From an uncultured Acidobacteriota bacterium (GTDB taxonomy: Bacteria; Acidobacteriota; UBA6911), in assembly GCA_963827655.1 (NCBI GenBank), contig CAWHCF010000042.1:52778-116777 (forward strand): a stretch of DNA of 64,000 nt, read 5' to 3'. Each line of letters begins with the position of its first letter. The stretch's first letter is position 1. The notes beneath the pieces were generated by a model. The model did no database searches. It saw only the letters and a program-made list of their open reading frames with translations, and was not told where the DNA came from. Positions 48,539-61,597 of this stretch are shown piece after piece. The position numbers and the translations under genes are program-made.

Positions 48539-49795
48539 CTAACGGCGACGCCCGCCGCCTCGACCGCCGCCGCCCATGCTGCTTCGCCCCCGGGAGCTGC
48601 TGGATCGACTGGAACTGCCCCGCTCGTACCCCGACCAGGCCCCGGCACCCGAGCTGGATTGGCGAGACGTTTGTGAGCCGCTCTGTCCATGCCCGCGCGA
48701 CTCATAACCCGAAGGAAGTGAAGAAACGCCGGCACCGCCAGATGAAGAACGAGCCGCCCGGTCCTGGGTACTGGCACTGGCTCCACTCGACTGGCGGCTG
48801 GCCTGACGGTCGGCTGTGGACGTTGTGGTTCCTGACTGGCGGCTGGCTTGACGTTCGCTCGCGGTTTGCTGCCCGCTGGTCTGCCGATTAGCCGCCGCTT
48901 CTTGGGCTTTAGCCTTTTGTTCGGCGGTCCGCTCCGGAGCATTCTCCCGCATGTCCTCGCGATGATCGTAATAGTCCTCCCGCCTGTCTTCCCGGTAGTC
49001 CGCGACGTCGTCCCAGTCGGCGCCATAATATCCACCGTAATGCATCCCGTAGCCTCCCCAGCCGTACGGTCCGTAGTAATAGCTGCTGTTCATGGTAGCT
49101 CCGAGAGCCACGCCGGCTGAAAATCCGATCAACCCGGCGGCAATTTCATCACTGTTGTCGTCTTCGTGAACGACGACGGTCTGGGTCGCCGGCGGCGCCT
49201 GAATGACATATACCGTCTGTGGATTATATTGGGGAACGTACACCACCTGAGGATTGGAGGGTTGAATCACGATTACCTGTTGCCCTCCCTGCTCTACCGT
49301 CTGGACCTCTTGCTGCGGCGTCGTCTTCAAATTCCCCAACTCAACCGCCTTAGACCGCAGCCTCTGAATGGAGGCGAACACCGCTTTCTTGTCAGCCGTG
49401 AAAGCCTGGCCCAACTGCCGCGTCCAGCCGATCGAATCGGCCATTGTCTTCACCACTTGTGGAAAAATGACAATCGCGACGAAACTGGGCGCGAACCCCT
49501 GCTTCTCGGCCGCATCCTGCAGTTCGGTCCCCTTCAGTTTCTGGTTTTTTTGGATCCAGCTATTGAGCTCGCGGACCTTATCCGGATCGGTGGAACAGAA
49601 CAGGATCTGTGCAATCAGAGCGTCGGGATAAAGCGCGACGGGCGCCAGTATTTTGTCCAGGGCCGCCGGATCCGGTGCCGGCTGGGTTTGGGCAGGCTGA
49701 GTTTGGGCCGCCTGGGTCTGGACGGCCAACGAGTGACTGCCGGGAGACACGACCAGAAGGCAAAGCGTGAGAACGGCTAATCTTCCCTTTGTCAT
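48539..49795 (-). CDS. DUF3300 family protein
   Basis: LAPVALYPDAL.AQIL, WT..LG.AF, IQRLR, GNLKTTPQQ.V, I.PSNPQVVYVPQYNP..VY; RGG tail; GGAGG RBS. Confidence 0.88.
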   Translation of the reverse strand: MTKGRLAVLTLCLLVVSPGSHSLAVQTQAAQTQPAQTQPAPDPAALDKILAPVALYPDALIAQILFCSTDPDKVRELNSWIQKNQKLKGTELQDAAEKQGFAPSFVAIVIFPQVVKTMADSIGWTRQLGQAFTADKKAVFASIQRLRSKAVELGNLKTTPQQEVQTVEQGGQQVIVIQPSNPQVVYVPQYNPQTVYVIQAPPATQTVVVHEDDNSDEIAAGLIGFSAGVALGATMNSSYYYGPYGWGGYGMHYGGYYGADWDDVADYREDRREDYYDHREDMRENAPERTAEQKAKAQEAAANRQTSGQQTASERQASRQSGTTTSTADRQASRQSSGASASTQDRAARSSSGGAGVSSLPSGYESRGHGQSGSQTSRQSSSGAGAWSGYERGSSSRSSSSRGRSSMGGGGRGGGRRR

Positions 49796-50065
49796 AACTA
49801 CCTCCAGCGAAACGTCGAAAAAAAGGACCTCGATACCCTGGACTTCGAGCCTCGTGTACCCGCCGAGCGGGGCGCGTGCAAGCGATAAACCCCAGAAGAA
49901 GGCAACATTCTTATACCACTGGCAGCATAGCCTCGACCACTGTAATTGCTGGCAGGCTACCCGGGCTGCTTCAGTCGACATCCAGAAGGAACCAATGAGT
50001 AGCGGAATCGAGCGCCGGTTCTGCGGGAGCTGATCTTTGATGTTGCCCGACTTGCAGCGACGAGT

Positions 50066-50911
50066 TCAGTAGGCCTTGAGCCCTGCCGCCCGGAACTGGG
50101 CAAGGGTCCTCTCGACGATTTCCTTTGAGGCTGGTTCCAGATCCCGAAGTTTGTATTCGATGTCGAGCTGCTTCCACTTGAAAGCGCCCATCTGGTGAAA
50201 AGGTAATACATCGACCCGTTCAACGTTGCCGAGGTTGGCAGTGAAGCTGGCAATCTGGGCGATCTCCTCCGGGTCGTCCGTCAAGCCGGGCACCAGCACG
50301 TAGCGGAGCGAGACCGGTCTTCTGCGAATTGCCAGGCGGCGCGCAAAGTTCAACACCGGATCTATGTTCATGCCGGTCAACCGGAGGTGCCGCGCCGGGT
50401 CCCACCCCTTTATGTCAAGCAATACCAGGTCAATTCTCTCAAGTTCCTCATCGCTGAGGCGATCGCCCAGGAAACCGTTGCTGTCCAAGGCCGTGTGAAT
50501 CCCCATGGCCTGGGCAGCGGTGAATAGCTTGACGACAAATCGGTCCTGCATCAAGGGTTCGCCACCGCTCACAGTCAATCCGCCCTTCATAATCTTGAGC
50601 CCTTGGCGATACTTTCCGAGTTGGGCTTTTGCTCTCTCAAGAGTGACCGGAACACCGTTCGTCATTCTCCAGGTATCGGGGTTGTGGCAGTACAGGCAAC
50701 GAAACTGGCATCCCGTGAGCCAGGCAACCACACGCACTCCCGGGCCATCCACGGTAGACCCGGTGGTAAACGAATGGACGAAGCCCATATCTCCAGTGGC
50801 GAGTGCCGTTCGAACGTCAGTCTCGGGCACATCCTGGCTCAGGCCGACACGAAGTTCGAAAGGGCTCTTCGCTTCCAGGGCAACCTGCTGCACCTCCGGA
50901 GTATCGCTCAT
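50066..50911 (-). CDS. pflA: Pyruvate formate-lyase activating enzyme (radical SAM)
   Basis: VDGPGVR, GCQFRCLYCHNPDTW, SGGEP, LPFHQMG. Confidence 0.95.
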   Translation of the reverse strand: MSDTPEVQQVALEAKSPFELRVGLSQDVPETDVRTALATGDMGFVHSFTTGSTVDGPGVRVVAWLTGCQFRCLYCHNPDTWRMTNGVPVTLERAKAQLGKYRQGLKIMKGGLTVSGGEPLMQDRFVVKLFTAAQAMGIHTALDSNGFLGDRLSDEELERIDLVLLDIKGWDPARHLRLTGMNIDPVLNFARRLAIRRRPVSLRYVLVPGLTDDPEEIAQIASFTANLGNVERVDVLPFHQMGAFKWKQLDIEYKLRDLEPASKEIVERTLAQFRAAGLKAY

Positions 50912-50912
50912 G

Positions 50913-53165
50913 TTACATACTTCCGTGGAAGGTGCGATTGATGACATCAAGTTGCTGTTCTCGAGTCAATCGCACGAAGTTAACCGCATAGCCGGACACG
51001 CGGATCGTCAGGTGCGGGTACTTTTCGGGATGGTCCATGGCATCCAGAAGCGTTTCGCGATTCAGCACATTCACGTTCATGTGGTAGCCGGTACTGCCAA
51101 AGAACGCATCGAGCATGCCGGTCAAATTGTTAATCCGGTCTTCCGCGACTCTCCCGAGGCCTTGGGGGACCATCGACACGGTCAGCGAGATTCCGTCGGC
51201 AGCATCACGATACGGGATCTTCGCAACCGAGGCCGCGGACGCGTGGATGCCATGCTGATCGCGGCCATGCATCGGATTCGCACCCGGCGCGAAGGGTTCT
51301 CCTTTTCGTCGCCCGTCCGGAGTGTTACCCGTGTTCTTCCCGTACACCACGTTCGAAGTGATCGTCAGGACCGATTGTGTATGTAGCGCGTTTCGATAGG
51401 TGGGATACTTCCTCAACTTCTTCATGAACGTGCTCACCACCCATGTAGCGAGCTGGTCAACACGATTGTCGTTATTGCCGAATTTCGGGAAATCACCTTC
51501 GGTCTGAAAGTCGGTCACCAGCCCGGTCTCGTCCCGGACCACACGTACTTTTGCGTAACGGATTGCCGACAGGCTATCGGCCACCACTGAAAGGCCTGCG
51601 ATACCGAAAGCCATGGTCCGCAACGGAGCGTAGTCGTGCAACGCCATCTCGATCCGTTCATAGGCGTACTTATCATGCATGTAGTGAATGATGTTCATGG
51701 CATTGACGTACACGTTGGCAACCCAGTCCATCATCTTCTCATACTTCTCGAGTACCTCGTCGAATTCAAGGGTCTCGCCCTGGATCGCGCCCATGGGCGG
51801 GCTCACCTGATCGCCACTGACTTCGTCCCGGCCTCCGTTGATGGCGTAGAGAAGACACTTGCCGAGATTGGCCCTCGCGCCAAAAAATTGCATCTGCTTG
51901 CCCATGAGCATCGGGGACACACAACAAGCAATGGCCCCGTCGTCGCCCCAGGAACGGCGCATGATTTCGTCGTTTTCGAATTGAATGGAACTCGTGTCGA
52001 TCGAAACTTTGGCGGCAAAATGGCGAAAGCCATCGGGCAGACGTGGGGAATACCAGATCGTCAGATTCGGCTCCGGGGCGGGGCCGAGGTTGTACAAGGT
52101 GTGAAGAAAACGGAAGCTCGTTTTCGTTACCAGCGGTCGACCGTCGTCTCCCATGCCGGCAAGCGACTCGGTGACCCAGGTCGGATCGCCTGCAAAAAGT
52201 TCATCATATTCCGGCGTACGCAGAAAGCGAACGATGCGCAGCTTGATCACGAAATCATCGATGATCTCCTGTGCCTGCGCCTCGCTGATGACGCCGGCGT
52301 CCAGGTCCCGCTGGAAGTAGATGTCGAGGAAGGTTGACGTCCGGCCCAACGACATGGCGGCGCCGTTCTGCTCTTTCACTGCCGCCAGATAGGCAAAGTA
52401 GAGCCACTGGACGGCTTCTCTCGCATTGCCGGCCGGCACCGAGATATCGAGTCCGTAGGCAGAGGCCATCTGCTGCAGTTCTTTCAACGCCCGGATTTGC
52501 TCGCTCAGTTCTTCCCGGTCCCGGATAATGTCGTCGGTCGACATGGCTGCATCGAGGCTGAGTTTTTCCTGCTGTTTCTGCTCGATGAGCCGGGAAACCC
52601 CGTATAGTGCCACACGCCGGTAATCGCCGATGATGCGGCCCCGCCCGTAGGCGTCGGGTAATCCGGTGAGGATGTGCGAGCTGCGGCAGCGCCTTACGTC
52701 TGCCGTGTAGGCATCGAAGACTGCCTCATTGTGGGTTTTCCGATACTTGGTAAAGGTCTCGACTACATGGGCATCGGGCTTGTAGCCGTAGGCTTTGAGG
52801 GCATTGACAACCAGCCGGAACCCCCCGTTCGGCATGATGGCGCGTTTTAGCGGCGCTTCGGTCTGAAGACCCACGATGATTTCATTCTCGCGATCGATGT
52901 AGCCGGGTCCGTGCGCGGTGATGGAACTTGGAATCTGCGAGACATCGAGGACACCTTTCTTGCGCTCCTCAAGGAACAGTTCGCTCAAACGGTTCCAGAT
53001 CTTGCTGGTTCGCTCCGTGGCGGGGGCAAGGAAGGATGCGTCGCCTTCGTAGGGCTCGTAGTTCTGCTGGATGAAATCGCGAACATCGATCTCCTTCCCC
53101 CAGAGGCCCGTCTTGAATCCCTGCCAGGGGGAAATCGCCTTTTCCTGGGCGGTAGTAGTACTCAT
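50913..53165 (-). CDS. pflB: Pyruvate formate-lyase (formate C-acetyltransferase)
   Basis: [23 protein letters not shown], glycyl-radical motif [10 protein letters not shown]. Confidence 0.97.
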
Positions 53166-53324
53166 CTTAGTTCTCCTTCTTGCCGCAGATGTTGCCTGGA
53201 ACACCATGCAGTAGAAAAAAGTTCAGGCATATATAGCAAAGGCCGACGCTCAGCTTCTTCCTTGGCGCCAAGAGGGGTGCCTTCAACCTGCAGACTCCTT
53301 CGCCTGCGAGCATTAAGATTGGTG

Positions 53325-54516
53325 TCACATCAATCCCAGCAGCCGACCGGTATGCCGGGCGATCATCAGCTCCTCGTTGGTCGGGATGACCCAGGCCGAG
53401 ACCTTGCTGTCCGGGCGGGAGATTCGCGGACCTTTACGGTCGTTGGCTTCGGCGTCGAGTTCCACACCGAGCCAGACCGAAGCTTCACAGATTCGCCGGC
53501 GGATTTCGGCTGAGTTCTCTCCGATGCCGGCGGTGAACACCAGCCCATCGATGCCGCCCAACACCGCGGCCAGGGCGCCGATCTCCTTGGCGGCACGGTA
53601 TACGAAGTAATCCACGGCCAGGCGGGCTTCAGGTTCGCTGCTGGCAAGCAGGTCACGCATGTCGTTACTGATGCCGGAAATCGCGAGCAACCCCGATTTC
53701 TTGTAGAGAATATCCTCGACTTGCTTGGCCGACAGTCCCAGGTTTTGAAAGAGATACAGAATCACGCCAGCATCGACGGTGCCCGGTCTGGTTCCCATGC
53801 AAAGCCCATCCAGGGCTGTGAAGCTCAGGGTACTATCGACGCTTTTCCCGTCCTTCAAGGCGCATAAGCTGGCGCCGCTTCCCAGATGGGCAACGATCAC
53901 GCGTCCCCGCGCAATCTCCGGCGCCACCTGCGGCAAGACAGAAGCAATATATTCGTAAGACAGTCCATGGAAACCGTAGCGCTGCAGCCCGGATTGACGA
54001 AGGTTGCGCGGCAGCGGTATCAGCTCCGCCACCGCCGAATGGCCGCGATGAAAGCTGGTATCGAAGCAGGCAACCTGCGGCACGTCCGGCAGCCGCTCGG
54101 AAACCGCTTCAATGGCTCGCCAGATTATAGGGCTGGTGCAATGGAGCCAGAGGAATCAGTTGATGCAGTTCTGCCAGCACCTCCCGGCTCACAATGGTGG
54201 GCTGGGCGTGCCGCGCTCCGCCATGAACCACGCGGTGCCCGACACCCAGGACTCGTGCGCCGCCATACCTGGACCGCAGCCAGCCGGCCAGCGCTTCCAG
54301 CGCCTGTCGCCCATCCCGGACGGACGCGTCTAGTGCCTGGTCGGCGAGTCTTGCCCCCGCAGCGTCCTTGGCCGAGAGTCGGGGCGATGTCCCGATGCCC
54401 TCGATCTGTCCACGCGCTTCCAGACACCAATTCTCGCCCTCTGGCCGCCGGTAGACGCAGAATTTCAGACTCGACGATCCGGCATTGAGTACCAGAGCAT
54501 AATCATCCATCACCAT
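53325..54516 (-). CDS. ackA: Acetate/propionate kinase, +1 frameshift near 54116
   Basis: [70 protein letters not shown]. Confidence 0.9.
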
Positions 54517-54521
54517 CTCTC

Positions 54522-55454
54522 CTATGGTTGTGCTCGCCGGGCATGAACCGCGAGCATCGCCACGGCGCAGCTTGCCGTGCGGGCTCGGACACTGTCGGCC
54601 CGGCTGGTGAGGACCACCGGCACCCTGGCTCCCAGGACCAGACCCGCACTGTCGGCGTTGGCCAGGAAAGTGAGCTGCTTCGCAAGAATGTTGCCCGCCT
54701 CGAGATCCGGCGCCAGCAGGATATCGGGATCACCGGCGACCTCGGAGCGAATGCCTTTGGTTCGAGCCGCCGCCTTGCTGATGGCGTTGTCAAACGCCAG
54801 CGGTCCATCCAGGACGGCGCCGGTAATTTGCCCGCGTTCCGCCATCTTGCAGAGTGCGGCGGCATCGAGGGTGGCGGGCATCTTCGAAGTCACGGTCTCC
54901 ACGGCCGCAAGGATCGCCACCTTGGGTTTTTCGAGACCGAGTGAGATCGCCAGATCGATGGCGTTCTGGCAAATGTCCACCTTGTCTTCCAGCGTCGGAG
55001 CAATATTGATCGCGCCGTCGGTCACGATCAGCACCTTGTGATACGTGGGAACATCCATGATGAAAACATGGCTGATGCGGCGCGCGGTGCGGAGTCCGCC
55101 ATCGCGGGCCACAATTGCCGACATCAGTTCGTCCGTATGGAGGCTGCCTTTCATCAAGAGTTCTGCCTGTCCTTCCCGAACCAGTGCTACGGCCTTCGCG
55201 GCGGATCCGTGGCTGTGCGGCGCGTCCACGATCTGCAGGTTGCCGAGATCGACTCCTGCGGCCTTGGCAGTAGCCGCGATCTTTGCCGCCGGCCCCACGA
55301 GAATGGGTCGTATCAGCTTCTTTTCAGCCGCCTCAACCGCTCCGCTGAGCGCCGTCTCCTCACACGGATGTGCTACCGCGGTCGGAACCGGCTCCAGTTT
55401 TTTGCACCGCGCCAGCAGCCGTTCGTATTTTCCTGTACCCTGCTTATGATTCAT
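54522..55454 (-). CDS. pta: Phosphate acetyl/butyryltransferase
   Basis: LMKGSLHT, TDGAINIAP, DGPLAFDNAI, PDLEAGNILAK, LTSRADS. Confidence 0.9.
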   Translation of the reverse strand: MNHKQGTGKYERLLARCKKLEPVPTAVAHPCEETALSGAVEAAEKKLIRPILVGPAAKIAATAKAAGVDLGNLQIVDAPHSHGSAAKAVALVREGQAELLMKGSLHTDELMSAIVARDGGLRTARRISHVFIMDVPTYHKVLIVTDGAINIAPTLEDKVDICQNAIDLAISLGLEKPKVAILAAVETVTSKMPATLDAAALCKMAERGQITGAVLDGPLAFDNAISKAAARTKGIRSEVAGDPDILLAPDLEAGNILAKQLTFLANADSAGLVLGARVPVVLTSRADSVRARTASCAVAMLAVHARRAQP

Positions 55455-55557: not shown

Positions 55558-56781
55558 TCAAACACGACGCGCGGGACCTGTCTCCTTCAAGCAAAAACTG
55601 AGGACAATGGCGATTGCCACGCCATAGAGCAGCGGCTCAAAGCCGGCCTGGTAATGCTCCAGCGTCATCTGCGAGGCCCCGCCCGAAACCTTGTGGAGGA
55701 TCCGTCCAAAGACCGGGCCCAGCAAAGCGCTGAAGGTGAAATTCAGAAAATTGATAACCCCCGTCGCCGTGCCGGCGAACTCCGGACGGTTTGCTTCTTT
55801 GATCACCGTATAAGGGAGCATGGCCGCGCCTGACGCCACTCCCGCTGTCAAGCCGAGGACATAAGGAGGAAAGACATCCGCGGGACCGTAGAGCACCCAG
55901 ACAAGGCATGCCAGAAGAACGATCCCCCCTCCAATGATCACTGGTTTCCTGCGCCCGATCCGATCCGAGAGCAGCCCCAGCATCGGACAACCGATAATCC
56001 ACCCGAAAGGTACGGTCGAGGAACGCATCACCGCTGAAGCATACTCAAAACCGCGCGCCTCCTGAAGGAAGCGCACACCCCAGATCATATCGAAGATCGT
56101 CGTGGGAATAAAAAGCAACCCTGCGATCATGCCGCAGAGGATCGACTGCGGGTTTCTGAAGACAGCGCTTAAAGCTCCGACTGCGTCCTTCAGCCCGCCA
56201 CTTTGGGCTTTTTGCTCCTGATGCGGAAGAAACACAACCAGTAGAACGCTGATGAGCAGCCCGGCGATGCCCATCCCAATCCAGAAATGGTTCCAGGCCA
56301 GGCCTCCGGCGATCATCGGGCCGACCACAGATTGGCCGGCCGATCCGCCGGCCATCCCGAACATCTGGGTTGCGCCGATCAATGTGGCGGCACGGGAGGC
56401 CGGGAAATTTGTGCTGGCGATGGAAACGGCTCCCACCAGTGCGAAAACACCGCCCGCGCCTTGCAGGAACCTCCCTGCAGTTGCCGCCGCTTGATTTCCC
56501 ATGGCGAACAGCAGGGCCCCGATGCCGACCGCCGCCGCGCCGATCGGGACAACCTTCCGCGGTCCCAGACGATCTATGGCTGCGCCGGCGACAAGACTGA
56601 ACGGTGAGTACCCGTAGTAGAACACACCTACCATCGAGGCCACACCGAGTGCGCTGAGTCCGAAAGCCTCGGACATTTGCGGCATCATGACGGCCGGTGC
56701 GGAGCGGAGCACGTATTGATAGAAGTAGTACACCGCCGCCAATAGCCAGGCCAAAACGGCCGTCCTGGCGCTTTGGCTCAT
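55558..56781 (-). CDS. MFS transporter
   Basis: About 12 TM helices; DRLGPR and SDRIGRRK loop motifs; GRFLQG. Confidence 0.92.
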   Translation of the reverse strand: MSQSARTAVLAWLLAAVYYFYQYVLRSAPAVMMPQMSEAFGLSALGVASMVGVFYYGYSPFSLVAGAAIDRLGPRKVVPIGAAAVGIGALLFAMGNQAAATAGRFLQGAGGVFALVGAVSIASTNFPASRAATLIGATQMFGMAGGSAGQSVVGPMIAGGLAWNHFWIGMGIAGLLISVLLVVFLPHQEQKAQSGGLKDAVGALSAVFRNPQSILCGMIAGLLFIPTTIFDMIWGVRFLQEARGFEYASAVMRSSTVPFGWIIGCPMLGLLSDRIGRRKPVIIGGGIVLLACLVWVLYGPADVFPPYVLGLTAGVASGAAMLPYTVIKEANRPEFAGTATGVINFLNFTFSALLGPVFGRILHKVSGGASQMTLEHYQAGFEPLLYGVAIAIVLSFCLKETGPARRV

Positions 56782-56821: not shown

Positions 56822-58470
56822 CTAACAAAGCACTAACGCCGCCAAACCTGCTTCGGACGTCTCCTTGTATTTGGCATTCATGTCCTTGGCGGTCATGGCC
56901 ATTGCCGCAATAGTGGTGTCGAGATCGACCCTGCGCTGTTCGGCAATTTCTTCGCTTGCGATGCTGTAGCCGGTCCAAGCCTTGACTGCCCCGTAGGCGC
57001 AGCGCTCGATGCAGGGTACCTGAACGTAGCCGGCCACCGGATCACAGGTCATGCCGAGGTGGTGCTCCAGGGCCGATTCGGCGGCATTCGAAACCACCTT
57101 GGGGTTGGCGCCCAAGGCCTGGGCGATCATCGCGGCCGCCATAGAGGAGCCCACTCCAACCTCCGCCTGGCAGCCGCCTTCGGCGCCAGACAGCGTGGCA
57201 TTGTGCTTGCATAGGTAGCCAATTGCCGCCGCTGCCAGGAACCCTTCCCGGATTTTCTGAGCTGGTATCTTGAGGTCACGAAGTGACCTGAGGACTGCCG
57301 GCAGAATTCCTGCCGAGCCGGCGGTGGGGGCGGTCACGATGATATGGCCGCGGGCGTTTTCCTCGCCCATGGCGAACGCATAGGCTGCCACCTGGCTAAT
57401 GGCACGCGCGCGCTTCGCCTCCGCTGGAGGCTTTCAGGTTGCGATGAATTGCGGCCGCCTTGCTGTGCAATTTGATCGGGCCGGGGAGAACACTCTCCAC
57501 TTTGAGCCCGGTGTCCACGCCGCGCGCCATGACTTCGGCCACCTGGTCGAGGAATTCCCAGATCTGCTTTCTCGCTCTTGCCGGAGATGGCCATTTCATT
57601 CTCCAGCAACAGCTGCGGCAGCGGGATCTTGTCGTCGATGATGAACTTTTTCAAGTGCTTAGCCTGCGAGAAGGGATACTTGGGTTTCCCCTTGTCCGGC
57701 GGCTTGTAGCCCTTCCACTCGATGAAGCCTCCGCCGACCGAGTAGTATTCCAGCTCGTAAAGCGTCTCGTTGCCGGCGAGCAACTTCGCGGTCATCGTGT
57801 TCGGGTGCGGGAAGGTTCCCTTGGGAGCGTCGAAGACGATGTCTTTCAGAGTCAGATTGAGACTGGTCGGACCGATGGTCACCTTGTGCGCTTCATCGGG
57901 ATTCGCGGCCAGTCCGTCCAGGAACTCGGGAGGGCACGTGGCTGGAGCCTTGCCGAGCAGTCCGGCGAGCGACGCCCGGTCGGTGCCATGACCTTTCCCG
58001 GTAGCGCTGAGACTGCCAAACAAATGGACTTTCAGCGCCGTGGCCCGCTTGAGCTGATCTTCCGGAAGCTTCGATACCCGCTGGAAGAAATCATACGTAA
58101 TTCGCATCGGGCCCATGGTGTGAGAACTCGAGGGTCCCGGGCCCATCTTGTAGAATTCGTCGAGCACCGTGATGATCGTGCCCTTGCCCTTCTGGACCAC
58201 GTCGAGTTCCGGCGACACGTTGGAAGCGGGCGGCGCCGCGGCAGGCCCAGGCGGCGACGCGCTTTTCTCGCCGTTTTTTGTTCCGGGCTGGAGCAGCCGG
58301 CCAGAATCGCTCCAGCGGAGGCGGCCAGGGCGGCGCGCCCGAGTTGCCGGCGGCTTAATAAGGTCGCGCTCTCCGCTTCGGCGGGCCGGTGCGCACGTGC
58401 CGCACCCTGTCGTACTGCAGCTGCCGCAGCCGCTTGCTGGGCTATTGATGACCTTCAATGAACTCTCCAT
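56822..58470 (-). CDS. sdaA: Fe-S-dependent L-serine ammonia-lyase with long N-terminal extension, several frameshifts (~58384, ~58269, ~57570, ~57410)
   Basis: [93 protein letters not shown]. Confidence 0.88.
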
Positions 58471-58508
58471 AGCTAATTCTCCTTTCGAGGAAAGTCTGTT
58501 GGATACAG

Positions 58509-59735
58509 CTACTTTTCTAACCGGACCGCAAAGTTGTATTTGAACGAAAACTGAATCCGGTAGTCCGGGACGCTCAAACCATCCCGGAAGTTCTTGCGGT
58601 GTCCCCACACGAACTCCGCACCCATCATCGCGTCTTTCACGGGGTAATAGAGGAGGTTCGTCGATGCGTACTGGCCGTCTCGAAAGGCATTGTCGGTTTG
58701 CGAAGCGCTGTTGACCATGTCGAGACGGGAATAGCCGACGGTGCTGCTGAATTTTTCACCCCAGTAGTGATCGTAGTACGCGACAATTCCAAGCAGCGGC
58801 AAGGCCTTTCCGGTGACCGGTGTCACGGGATTGCCCGGGTTGGGCTGCGGGCCGATATCTGCCGGGGCATCGTTCATGTAGTTCTGGATGCCCTCGCCAT
58901 ACACGATTTGAAGCTTCACGACATCCTTCGTGGAAACCTTCAGATTGGAACTGAGATTCACTCCCCAGCCCCAGTCATCGCCGGAGAGATCGAATTGATC
59001 CGTTCCAATATCGACCCACTTGATCCTTCTCAGCATTCCTGCGACCTCGACATAGCCCCAGTCGCGGCCGAGCCGGGCCTCCCCTGAGATGTCGGGCATT
59101 GGAAAATGAGGCCGGACGTCCTGGAGCTCAATCCTGTCCCGGTAAATTCCCTGGTCCGCGCTCGCGCCTGGCCGCTCCAGGGCCAAGGTGACGCGGGATT
59201 CTCCCTGAATTGGCATCCATCGGAACTGTACGTTACGGAAGAACACCATTCCGTTCGGTCCCCAATACTCCACCGAGTTGGGAAAGACGTCGACGTCCAT
59301 GAAGGGGCTCCAGGTCTGGCCGGCTCCGAACTGGCCAAGCTCTCCATAGGCATGACGCAACCGGAACGTGGTCTGTCCCGCGTCAACACCGGTCCCGAAA
59401 AGCTCGAATTCGAAGAGCGCCTTCAACGCGCCCAGGTCCGTCGGGACTTCGGATCTGACCCCGAAGCGCGTCTGCCGGACACTGAAATAGTTATTGCCGT
59501 CGGCGCCGAACTCGTCTTTCCTGGATGGGAGCTTGACAGGTCGTACGACGTCGAACCAGGCCGGGTCCACTTGCTTGAAGTCGTAGCCTGCATCCATCAT
59601 GACGAAACCGTAAATCTCCAACGACGGCTTCGCGGGCTGAGACTGTGAAGCGGACTGAGCAAAAGCAGCGTCCCCGCAGACAAGGACCGCAGTGCAGCAC
59701 CACAATCCCCATGCTCTCCCAATTGTTTTCTTCAT
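58509..59735 (-). CDS. DcaP-family outer-membrane porin
   Basis: Signal peptide; IYGF.M.D, SVRQTRFG, FRLRHAYGE, GQTWSPFMD.D.FP, YGEGIQNY, alternating beta-strand C-terminus. Confidence 0.85.
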   Translation of the reverse strand: MKKTIGRAWGLWCCTAVLVCGDAAFAQSASQSQPAKPSLEIYGFVMMDAGYDFKQVDPAWFDVVRPVKLPSRKDEFGADGNNYFSVRQTRFGVRSEVPTDLGALKALFEFELFGTGVDAGQTTFRLRHAYGELGQFGAGQTWSPFMDVDVFPNSVEYWGPNGMVFFRNVQFRWMPIQGESRVTLALERPGASADQGIYRDRIELQDVRPHFPMPDISGEARLGRDWGYVEVAGMLRRIKWVDIGTDQFDLSGDDWGWGVNLSSNLKVSTKDVVKLQIVYGEGIQNYMNDAPADIGPQPNPGNPVTPVTGKALPLLGIVAYYDHYWGEKFSSTVGYSRLDMVNSASQTDNAFRDGQYASTNLLYYPVKDAMMGAEFVWGHRKNFRDGLSVPDYRIQFSFKYNFAVRLEK

Positions 59736-59934
59736 ACGCATCGCCTCCATTGTGATCGGTCGCAACTACTACGATGACTTCCCCTGATCATCATCTGCTC
59801 TTGAGTTCCGTCGTTCTCAATTTCGGGTTTCAGCTCCGAGGCTCAGTACTCCCGAAAGAGCCTCTGGACGTCGGCCAGGCTGCGAGACTTCAAAAGGGCA
59901 AGTCGGAGGAGCACTCGCGCCTTCTGGGGGTTCA

Positions 59935-60269
59935 GGGTAGATCACATGCTGCGTCCCGGAGGCCAGGATCATCAGGTAGGTGACCAGAGGGGCGAGGAAG
60001 GTGATGCGGCGAGGGTTTCGGCGCAGGACTTTCTCTGCGAGTTGGATGACGTAGTCAAGTCCCCCTGCGGCCTGCATCAGCGAAAGGGCTGTGATCACCG
60101 CCAGGATCATTCCCAGAACGGTACCCGGCGGGCTGCCGGGTGGGAGCCCGAACAGGAAGACGAATACGAAGAGCCCGAGCCCGCCCATCGGCCCGAGGCC
60201 AATTCCCCCCAGGCGGGCCCCGACCACGATCGAGGCAAGGAGCACCAGCAGTTCCATCCAAAGAAGCAT
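59935..60269 (-). pseudogene. dcu: Truncated anaerobic C4-dicarboxylate transporter (DcuA/DcuB family), N-terminal ~110 aa only
   Basis: GARLGGIGLG..GGLG, MQAAGGLDY....AEKVLRRNPRRITFLAPLVTY, GT.HV.Y; similarity then ends abruptly. Confidence 0.82.
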
Positions 60270-60479
60270 GGTATCCACGCGATTCGAGTACAGTCCCGCG
60301 TCCCAACCAATGTGAGTATGCAGGGACGTCGAATGGCGCTGAACTGGAATAGATGGCAGGTTTGACTGGAAAATGGACCGGGGGCTGGATTGCCGGCAGA
60401 GCGAATCGCCAGGCTGGTTGTGTTCGTGTCATCCGGCATCGCCGACCGCGTCACGGTGATCAGAGCGGTCGAAGTCACC

Positions 60480-61324: not shown

Positions 61325-61430
61325 CTGAGCTTCCCGAACCGTGGTTTTTCACAAGTCCAATATCATGGATAAACTGGGAGTTCGCACGACAGCCCAGTTG
61401 ACCCGATCCGCCATGCGCCACGGCCTGGTG
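61325..61430 (+). pseudogene. Orphan LuxR-type HTH fragment
   Basis: Frame from 61332 reads SRTVVFHKSNIMDKLGVRTTAQLTRSAMRHGLV with no intact 5' part. Confidence 0.7.
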
Positions 61431-61597
61431 CCTTCCCTCAACGATGATGGTACTGCCTGGGTTGGCCCGGCCCACACGTAAACCCGAACGGCCTGAGCCA
61501 GACAGCGTAACCAGCCCTCGTTCGCTGGAGCGGCCTGCGAGCGCTAACTGTGGCGATTTCGACCAGGCGTCGAATTCAATGTCGGGCGGCGGCCATT

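Follow-up and report, generated by a model that had tools for sequence, protein, structure and literature searches.

A frame-broken sdaA gene in an Acidobacteriota genome and the predicted twin-arginine lipoprotein leader of its serine dehydratase clade

We analyzed a 64,000-nucleotide stretch of DNA from an uncultured Acidobacteriota bacterium (lineage UBA6911; GenBank assembly GCA_963827655.1, contig CAWHCF010000042.1, positions 52,778 to 116,777), called the window below. Its minus strand contains sdaA, a gene for an L-serine dehydratase, which as assembled is broken, whatever its leader does. We consider it likely that the gene is a broken copy from a distinct SdaA-type clade whose precursor is exported by twin-arginine translocation (Tat) and anchored by a lipid in the periplasm, where the enzyme would feed an importer and a fermentation operon. 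The precursor of the clade begins with a 26-residue N-terminal piece that ends in four invariant cysteines (C-x2-C-x4-C-x2-C, here Cys4), followed by a 14-residue spacer, a twin-arginine (RR) signal, a lipobox cysteine with a Pro/Ala tether, and the full enzyme. The signal has the form S/T-R-R-x-hydrophobic-G, and then an Ala/Ser/Gly-rich core. The original prediction, made from the letters of the window, had proposed such a hidden twin-arginine signal with a hydrophobic core and a lipobox behind a Cys-rich N-terminus, and intact orthologs carry this leader in-frame.

Genome G006, from the same family, contains an intact ortholog of 548 amino acids in which Cys4, RR, lipobox, linker, and SdaA stand in one frame. 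Its sequence runs MERSFNVIKNAEESCGTCNTKVCGACSS..FSRRDLGRAAFAAATASVFAGCSGPP.., followed by a Pro/Ala linker and SdaA. The out-of-frame peptide of the window is identical to residues 33-66 of the intact 548-residue ortholog P0004 at 22 of 34 positions (65%, E 7e-12), and it keeps R41, R42, G45, G59, and C60, all invariant or near-invariant in the leaders of the family. When residues 1-100 of the 548-residue ortholog were used in a word-indexed search, ten proteins matched, all of them with SDH_beta and the same leader.

From its ATG, sdaA is read in the start frame, in the next frame (from ~58385), in the start frame again (~58269), in the next frame (~57570), and in the third frame (~57411) up to the stop codon TAG (56822). 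The path is the same by three-frame translation, by a plot of codon usage, and by tblastn with the orthologs. We found no single uninterrupted sdaA frame in the window (there are four frame changes), and the Pfam domains SDH_beta and SDH_alpha fall in open reading frames (ORFs) of different frames. The codon-usage plot supports both frame changes in the catalytic domain; stop-to-stop ORF coverage is uninformative for the choice of frame in this GC-rich genome. The shift first proposed near 58384 corresponds to a deficit of 2 nucleotides at ~58385 against eight orthologs, and the compensating shift near 58269, which returns to the Pro/Ala linker and the catalytic domain, to a deficit of 1 nucleotide against the same number. 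The proposed reconstruction of the leader is correct because of the ortholog identity (22/34) and these exact deficits, and the positions given for SRR and LAGC proved exact when the DNA was re-read. Two more shifts, at ~57570 and ~57411 in the catalytic part, had been overlooked.

If the present frame were correct, the Tat and lipobox look would be a chance product of GC-rich DNA and the gene would encode a cytoplasmic SdaA extended by a basic, disordered segment. The assembled frame is indeed open from the ATG through the leader, and the codon-usage scores do not separate the leader frames. We give this explanation virtually no chance, and by ortholog comparison it is already refuted: more than 50 orthologs carry the signal in-frame, the match of the out-of-frame peptide is far from random (E 7e-12), the deficit against eight orthologs is exactly 2 + 1 nucleotides, and the gene is broken twice more downstream anyway. 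Programmed frameshifting was also considered and rejected: the orthologs are single-frame, and the frame changes of close relatives sit elsewhere.

To map the spread of the leader, one genome per species (185,579 species) was scanned with two conserved family peptides, which gave 76 loci. Two were dropped (L083 has no upstream DNA, L084 has no catalytic motif in the locus) and the window was added, for a total of 75 loci scored in all three frames. RR calls were made by pattern in 61 loci and by eye in three of Binatia type (L072, L075, L081). An RR leader is present in 64 of the 75 loci, the Cys4 motif in 59, the lipobox in 54, and all three in 50. The original prediction had asked whether SdaA homologs beside the porin gene carry such leaders; a porin is near at least 25 of the 64 RR-leader genes. 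By record title, the carriers are mostly Acidobacteriota (Terriglobia), with a second block in Bacteroidota that includes the isolate Algoriphagus sp. A40 and a few in Binatia, Planctomycetota, Verrucomicrobiota, and Gemmatimonadota; these assignments are rough, as some titles conflict with the tree and may belong to mislabelled bins. The titles of L011, L064, L062, and L075 (e.g., Acidimicrobiia, Limnohabitans, Margulisiibacteriota) disagree with their tree place among Acidobacteriota, Bacteroidota, or Binatia, and these are probably mislabelled or mis-binned metagenome-assembled genomes (MAGs).

Forty-one leaders were aligned (mean 38% identity to the first). M1, the four cysteines, and RR are invariant, and conservation is 90% or more at G45, S52, and G59. 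The first Cys is preceded by 14 residues in 40 of the 41, Cys4 and RR are 14 residues apart in 36, and RR and the lipobox Cys are 17 residues apart in 33. Judged from the aligned sequences, the leader is a conserved family trait with a nearly fixed geometry. In five short metagenome ORFs (P0011, P0047, P0052, P0056, P0058; 54-154 amino acids) the Cys4 leader is fused in-frame to the final 15-95 SdaA residues (..KYKETSE..LVLC). Such ORFs could have arisen as chimeras of the assembly or through genuine internal deletions.

The enzyme itself is identified by curated models and by alignment to a known SdaA. Ortholog P0001 scores 411.9 bits with TIGR00720, the equivalog model of L-serine ammonia-lyase, above the cut-off of 345.1, and residues 104-544 of the ortholog align to Legionella SdaA (4RQO, E 2e-85) with the Cys of GCQ, MTCDP, and PCIER and the C-terminal Cys conserved. 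C433, C475, C486, and C548 are invariant in 35 orthologs and all are kept in the window. The GCQ, MTCDP, and PCIER cysteines would be the cluster ligands, as is reported for the Legionella structure. To our knowledge, every SdaA-type serine dehydratase studied so far is cytoplasmic. Public records name the proteins of the clade plainly L-serine dehydratase or ammonia-lyase. The protein of Algoriphagus sp. A40 (L063) is given by RefSeq as 546 amino acids from the leader Met and by GenBank as 441 amino acids from a start downstream, without Cys4 and RR. This protein lacks the lipobox Cys, which orthologs P0001, P0004, and P0008 have. The plain enzyme names and this one downstream start call are why we describe the leader as unremarked in public records.

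The signal portion has adjacent arginines in 41 of 41 leaders, followed by a short, uncharged core rich in Ala, Ser, and Gly (~13 residues). The Kyte-Doolittle median of the core is 1.91, and the Sec-type signals of the neighboring asparaginase, glutaminase, and porin genes range from 2.2 to 2.7. In the window the hydrophobic core ends in the lipobox LAGC. Leaders that have no lipobox Cys show Ala-x-Ala-like ends instead (e.g., ALAQQP, DARAGNQ). The genome of the window encodes TatC, LspA, and Lgt.

Three basal members of the clade (L067, L069, L082) have a canonical RRxF(L/M)M leader without the Cys motif. Tested with the Tat model TIGR01409 (cut-off 16.7 bits), L067 (25.4) and L069 (18.7) pass and L082 (16.6) falls just under; the leader of the window, being frame-shifted, was left out of the submission. 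On a tree of the catalytic domain, rooted with three distant SdaA genes (a quick search with long outgroup branches), these canonical forms branch first and the Cys4 forms make up one group (SH-aLRT 84), inside which leaderless Bacteroidota forms are nested. Two results speak against a Tat signal in the Cys4 clade: its leaders L009, L029, and L063 have no TIGR01409 match even at E 10, and Gly takes the place of the Tat-consensus Leu in 55 of 56 leaders. For these two reasons we read the leader as atypical. We infer that it is a derived twin-arginine signal and that Tat is its route, because it descends from canonical Tat leaders and because Sec, which cannot carry a folded iron-sulfur enzyme, would be barred to it.

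The missed Tat model and the substituted Gly would also suit an N-terminal membrane anchor that stays uncleaved and bears a zinc knuckle in the cytoplasm, or a leader that holds the enzyme at the inner membrane face beside the neighboring major facilitator superfamily (MFS) carrier. The length of the precursor, with 59 residues ahead of the lipobox Cys, and the cytoplasmic location of all the downstream enzymes point the same way. We regard such an anchor as very unlikely. The lipobox Gly-Cys keeps a fixed distance from RR in 36 of 41 leaders and in other members gives way to Ala-x-Ala-like sites, which is the behavior of a cleaved signal, and the core, short at ~13 residues, is of only moderate hydrophobicity (median 1.91). 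RR stands ahead of the core, and the positive-inside rule, which orients membrane segments, would place the catalytic domain outside. In addition, the basal relatives bear model-passing Tat signals at the same position.

We searched a profile of the 41 leaders against 1.84 billion representative proteins and inspected all 50 matches at E <=1e-3. Forty-nine are SdaA-type leaders, mostly on gene fragments, so the Cys4 module is tied to SdaA and is not general to Tat signals. The single other match (P0048) is an unrelated protein of 1413 amino acids in which a similar C-x2-C-x4-C-x2-C unit occurs six times, a hint that Cys4 units can also exist as modules of their own. This protein is very acidic and repeat-rich, ends in six GC(D/E)xCTxKDCANCSKGAAK units, and has no Pfam family. 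The Cys4 leader as a general type of leader was rejected as a candidate: a six-frame regular-expression scan of the genome found no other ORFs with Cys4, RR, and core (frameshifts could hide some), and the profile is restricted to SdaA.

The Cys4 piece belongs to no Pfam or NCBIfam family and has no significant match in the PDB. Among known zinc modules, FYVE_2 stays below threshold (E 0.0097, 16.5 bits against a cut-off of 27.2), and PDB profile matches to B-box and rabphilin zinc sites are insignificant (E 0.15-0.59) and serve as leads only. Cys4 arose inside a clade already bearing the Tat signal, and the Leu of that signal changed to Gly along with it. A few nested members have lost it (e.g., L061), and L046 retains three Cys. 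Our guess is that the piece folds, on the cytoplasmic side of the signal, into a small, enzyme-specific knuckle that binds metal and could protect or silence the cluster or time export. A more specific proposal, distinctly speculative and improbable as it stands, is a cis-acting pro-sequence that binds metal or caps the open iron in the [4Fe-4S] cluster of the same enzyme (a "cysteine switch"), silences and shields the enzyme in the cytoplasm, and permits the Tat system to engage the RR-x-hydrophobic-G signal only after the cluster has been inserted. This proposal fits the occurrence with SdaA only, the fixed spacing to RR, the origin in a Tat-bearing clade, and the joint change to Gly. If true, a Tat substrate would for the first time be seen to have a metal-dependent proofreading device built into it.

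The gene order around sdaA is given in Table 1. On the minus strand, porin, sdaA, MFS carrier, pta, ackA, pflB, and pflA follow each other with gaps that range from an 8-nucleotide overlap (pflB/pflA) to 117 nucleotides. Promoter and terminator scans stayed at background level.

Table 1. Features of the sdaA gene and its operon in the window (positions counted from the first letter of the window)
Feature	Position	Strand	Remarks
Shine-Dalgarno AGGAG	58479-58483	minus	8 nt ahead of ATG 58470; direct reading of the 30 nt upstream
sdaA	58470-56822	minus	ATG to TAG = 1649 nt, not divisible by 3; four frame changes
MESSLKV start of sdaA	58470-58450	minus	start frame
Cys4 motif C-x2-C-x4-C-x2-C	58393-58428	minus	start frame; 14 residues ahead of first Cys
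Indel site 1	58383-58386 (~58385)	minus	2 nt short against 8 orthologs; GC-rich run CCGG/CCCGCC; DNA alignments
Out-of-frame signal stretch (36 residues)	58275-58382	minus	frame next to start frame; 22/34 identity to ortholog P0004
AEAESATLL	58382-58356	minus	next frame
SRR	58355-58347	minus	twin arginine 58347-58352, RR of SRRQLGR
Lipobox LAGC	58293-58304	minus	Cys 17 residues past RR
SSPEQK	58292-58275	minus	end of out-of-frame stretch
Indel site 2	58268-58270 (~58269)	minus	1 nt short against 8 orthologs; start frame regained
Pro/Ala-rich linker	58216-58263	minus	start frame, opening SASPPGP at 58263-58243; between lipobox and catalytic domain
SdaA beta domain and start of alpha domain	57568-58215	minus	start frame; Pfam SDH_beta E 7.7e-40, tblastn
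Indel site 3	57566-57572 (~57570)	minus	one surplus A in GAGAAAGCAG; orthologs read ..SEKQIWEF.. uninterrupted
Alpha domain, middle piece	57411-57565	minus	one base further on; translation, codon-usage plot, tblastn
Indel site 4	57405-57415 (~57411)	minus	one surplus base in GCGCGCGCG run
Remainder of alpha domain	56822-57404	minus	third frame; VPCIERC, C-terminal ..LVLC, TAG; SDH_alpha E 1.2e-61, aligned to 4RQO
DcuA/DcuB carrier remnant	59817-60278	minus	PF03605 E 5e-44, profile positions 1-107 of 368
DcaP-like outer-membrane porin	58509-59765	minus	38 nt upstream of sdaA; PF19577 73.3 bits, cut-off 27; PDB 6EUS E 9e-9
MFS carrier, proposed pyruvate (2-oxo acid) importer	55558-56781	minus	40 nt downstream of sdaA; PF07690
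pta, phosphate acetyltransferase	54522-55454	minus	NF008852 519.8 bits, cut-off 413
ackA, acetate kinase	53325-54516	minus	split, one frame change ~54100-54116; two ORFs = PF00871 positions 2-126 and 140-392; tblastn
pflB, pyruvate formate-lyase	50913-53207	minus	TIGR01255 1143.7 bits, cut-off 994.2
pflA, pyruvate formate-lyase activating enzyme	50066-50950	minus	TIGR02493 on first 161 aa; orthologs align from 50920

Gene linkage sets the RR-leader loci apart. The gene next downstream of sdaA encodes an MFS carrier in at least 47 of the 64 RR-leader loci and in one of the 11 loci without an RR leader (that one is heavily frame-shifted); at least 39 of the 64 contain pta, ackA, or pflB, and the porin counted above lies within 6 kb of the gene. 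These neighbor counts are lower bounds, as some loci stop at contig edges. Frequent upstream neighbors are asparaginase II and glutaminase with N-terminal signal peptides, a Dcu carrier, and aspartase. Relatives have dcu-aspA-ansB upstream of the porin, a block that the locus in the window has lost or rearranged.

The sequences show the anatomy of the precursor, its conservation, the restriction of the leader to SdaA, and the gene linkage; from these we predict export, the Tat route, lipidation, the MFS substrate, and an anaerobic role, which together make up a route for serine. The enzyme would fold in the cytoplasm and be loaded there with its [4Fe-4S] cluster, the Tat system would move the loaded enzyme across the inner membrane, and Lgt and LspA would lipidate and cleave it at the lipobox Cys. 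Serine would enter through the neighboring DcaP-like porin, and L-serine (possibly also L-threonine) would be deaminated in the periplasm with release of ammonium there. The MFS carrier encoded downstream would import pyruvate, which PflB/PflA, Pta, and AckA would convert to acetate, formate, and ATP under anoxia. Some points speak against the second half of this route. PflB, Pta, and AckA are cytoplasmic, so the scheme hinges on the MFS carrier importing the product, and the carrier is assigned by Pfam to general MFS_1 only: with its nearest NCBIfam model, TIGR00893 of the anion:cation symporter (ACS) subfamily, it scores 76.3 bits against a cut-off of 395. The carrier also has no relative in the PDB by sequence.

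The original prediction had placed a membrane-tethered periplasmic deaminase between the DcaP porin and the MFS carrier. The linkage to these genes holds up by comparison (MFS in 47/64 loci against 1/11, porin in 25/64), and the export part is weakened by the failure of Cys4 leaders to match TIGR01409. Its account of the neighborhood was right about the porin and the MFS carrier and had overlooked pta-ackA-pflBA, the genes that would be what gives the system its purpose.

The catalytic part of the clade is the same beta and alpha domain enzyme as the cytoplasmic [4Fe-4S] L-serine dehydratases (Legionella pneumophila SdaA, 4RQO; E. coli SdaA, SdaB, and TdcG). The clade differs by ~100 additional N-terminal residues (Cys4, twin-arginine signal, lipobox, Pro/Ala tether), by its predicted periplasmic workplace, and by its neighbors, which are a porin and an MFS carrier and not a serine importer. 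The E. coli operon tdcABCDEFG gains ATP from serine and threonine under anoxia with the dehydratase TdcG, the pyruvate/2-oxobutyrate formate-lyase TdcE, and the acyl kinase TdcD. The same logic is found here with sdaA, pflB/pflA, pta, and ackA. However, the tdc system imports the amino acid (TdcC) and deaminates it inside, whereas here we predict that deamination takes place outside and that the oxo acid is imported.

Campylobacter and Helicobacter use periplasmic asparaginase II, glutaminase, and gamma-glutamyl transpeptidase together with Dcu/Glt uptake. The strategy would be the same, with periplasmic removal of nitrogen followed by import of the acid, and in many loci ansB, glsA, dcu, and aspA stand beside the predicted exported sdaA. 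Their enzymes are cofactor-free hydrolases exported by Sec, whereas the one predicted here is an oxygen-labile iron-sulfur lyase that would cross the membrane folded. A twin-arginine signal that ends in a lipobox is a known combination, and TorD, DmsD, and NapD are known Tat proofreading chaperones for cofactor enzymes, which need to be retained until their cofactor is loaded. Unlike these separate chaperones, the Cys4 module, if it controls export, would act in cis.

We searched the literature by titles and abstract openings (subscription journals and supplements lie outside this search). Within that scope no Tat-dependent or periplasmic serine dehydratase is described, and neither a Cys-rich n-region nor a conserved four-Cys module in it was found for known Tat signals. 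Each element is known singly, from the enzyme and Tat export to lipoprotein anchoring and the deamidation of amino acids in the periplasm; within the same scope, their combination and the Cys4 n-region are not.

The four frame changes in the window could be errors of the assembly consensus or mutations of the gene. We consider it quite likely that they are consensus errors; otherwise the gene would be a very young pseudogene. Of the 235 catalytic positions invariant in the family, 233 are kept (P98 and K350 are lost), which lies within the range of intact orthologs, as a leave-one-out test on those missed 0-2 invariant positions in 32 of 35. No stop codon interrupts the frame-shifted signal stretch, and every conserved residue is present in it. 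Two of the four indel sites lie in an A run (site 3) or a (GC)n run (site 4). The nearest relatives at the DNA level, L011, L064, and L065, are contig-level MAG assemblies and have one, two, and ~ten frame changes in sdaA, at other positions, a pattern that looks like consensus error. Contigs from four sequencing runs come from relatives, mostly 88-95% alike, and bridge only site 3, where they have one base fewer at 57566/57567. The MFS gene beside the intact ortholog in G006 (L002:186-716, minus strand) is itself split by a frame change; such breaks occur in the assemblies of relatives too.

The public sequencing runs were searched for the sdaA stretch and none contained it (best share of words 0.16). 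Several results are unfavorable to consensus error. The 1.65 kb of sdaA have four frame changes, an excess over one in the other ~8 kb of the operon and two in 22.5 kb elsewhere, the latter a small sample of 20 regions, and a truncated dcu gene at the locus fits real decay. If the changes are real, sdaA has become a pseudogene, the locus for amino-acid fermentation around it is decaying, and there is no working enzyme here, an explanation that is compatible with our reading of the family and that we hold to be unlikely, though far from negligible. It would also account for the split ackA, for the upstream Dcu carrier being cut to positions 1-107 of the 368 in its profile, and for a second SdaA copy on another contig of the same genome being a remnant of 118 amino acids (L086:1531-1887). 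If neutral decay brings roughly ten substitutions per indel, ~ten changes at invariant positions would be expected, and two are seen, which speaks against a pseudogene. The L086 remnant contains an SdaA alpha domain with GGCQAE and MTCDPV and has no adjoining beta domain.

If the enzymes of the clade are exported and lipid-anchored as predicted, an oxygen-labile iron-sulfur lyase would work in the periplasm and the ammonium of serine would be released outside the cell. The RR-leader clade, found in 64 of the 74 species genomes scored, occurs mostly in Acidobacteriota, a dominant soil phylum, and in Bacteroidota, and the operon points to anaerobic fermentation of serine. Going by leader and gene linkage, soil bacteria probably break down serine outside the cytoplasm, which would bear on the mineralization of amino-acid nitrogen in soil and on the survival of anoxia. 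The four-Cys n-region would be a new feature of a twin-arginine signal, and a cultured carrier exists in Algoriphagus sp. A40. Small indels in contig-level assemblies can mask targeting signals from ORF-based annotation.

Two other regions near the operon were noted. On the plus strand, a receiver domain (PF00072, 60718-61113) ends without an output domain, and ~230 nucleotides past it an ORF of 46 amino acids (61341-61481) resembles a LuxR-type helix-turn-helix by eye and has no Pfam match; the two may be another split gene. On the minus strand, a DUF3300 protein (PF11737, E 3.6e-54, 48539-49981) follows pflA, and a few relatives have similar proteins (cluster 27) close to the operon.

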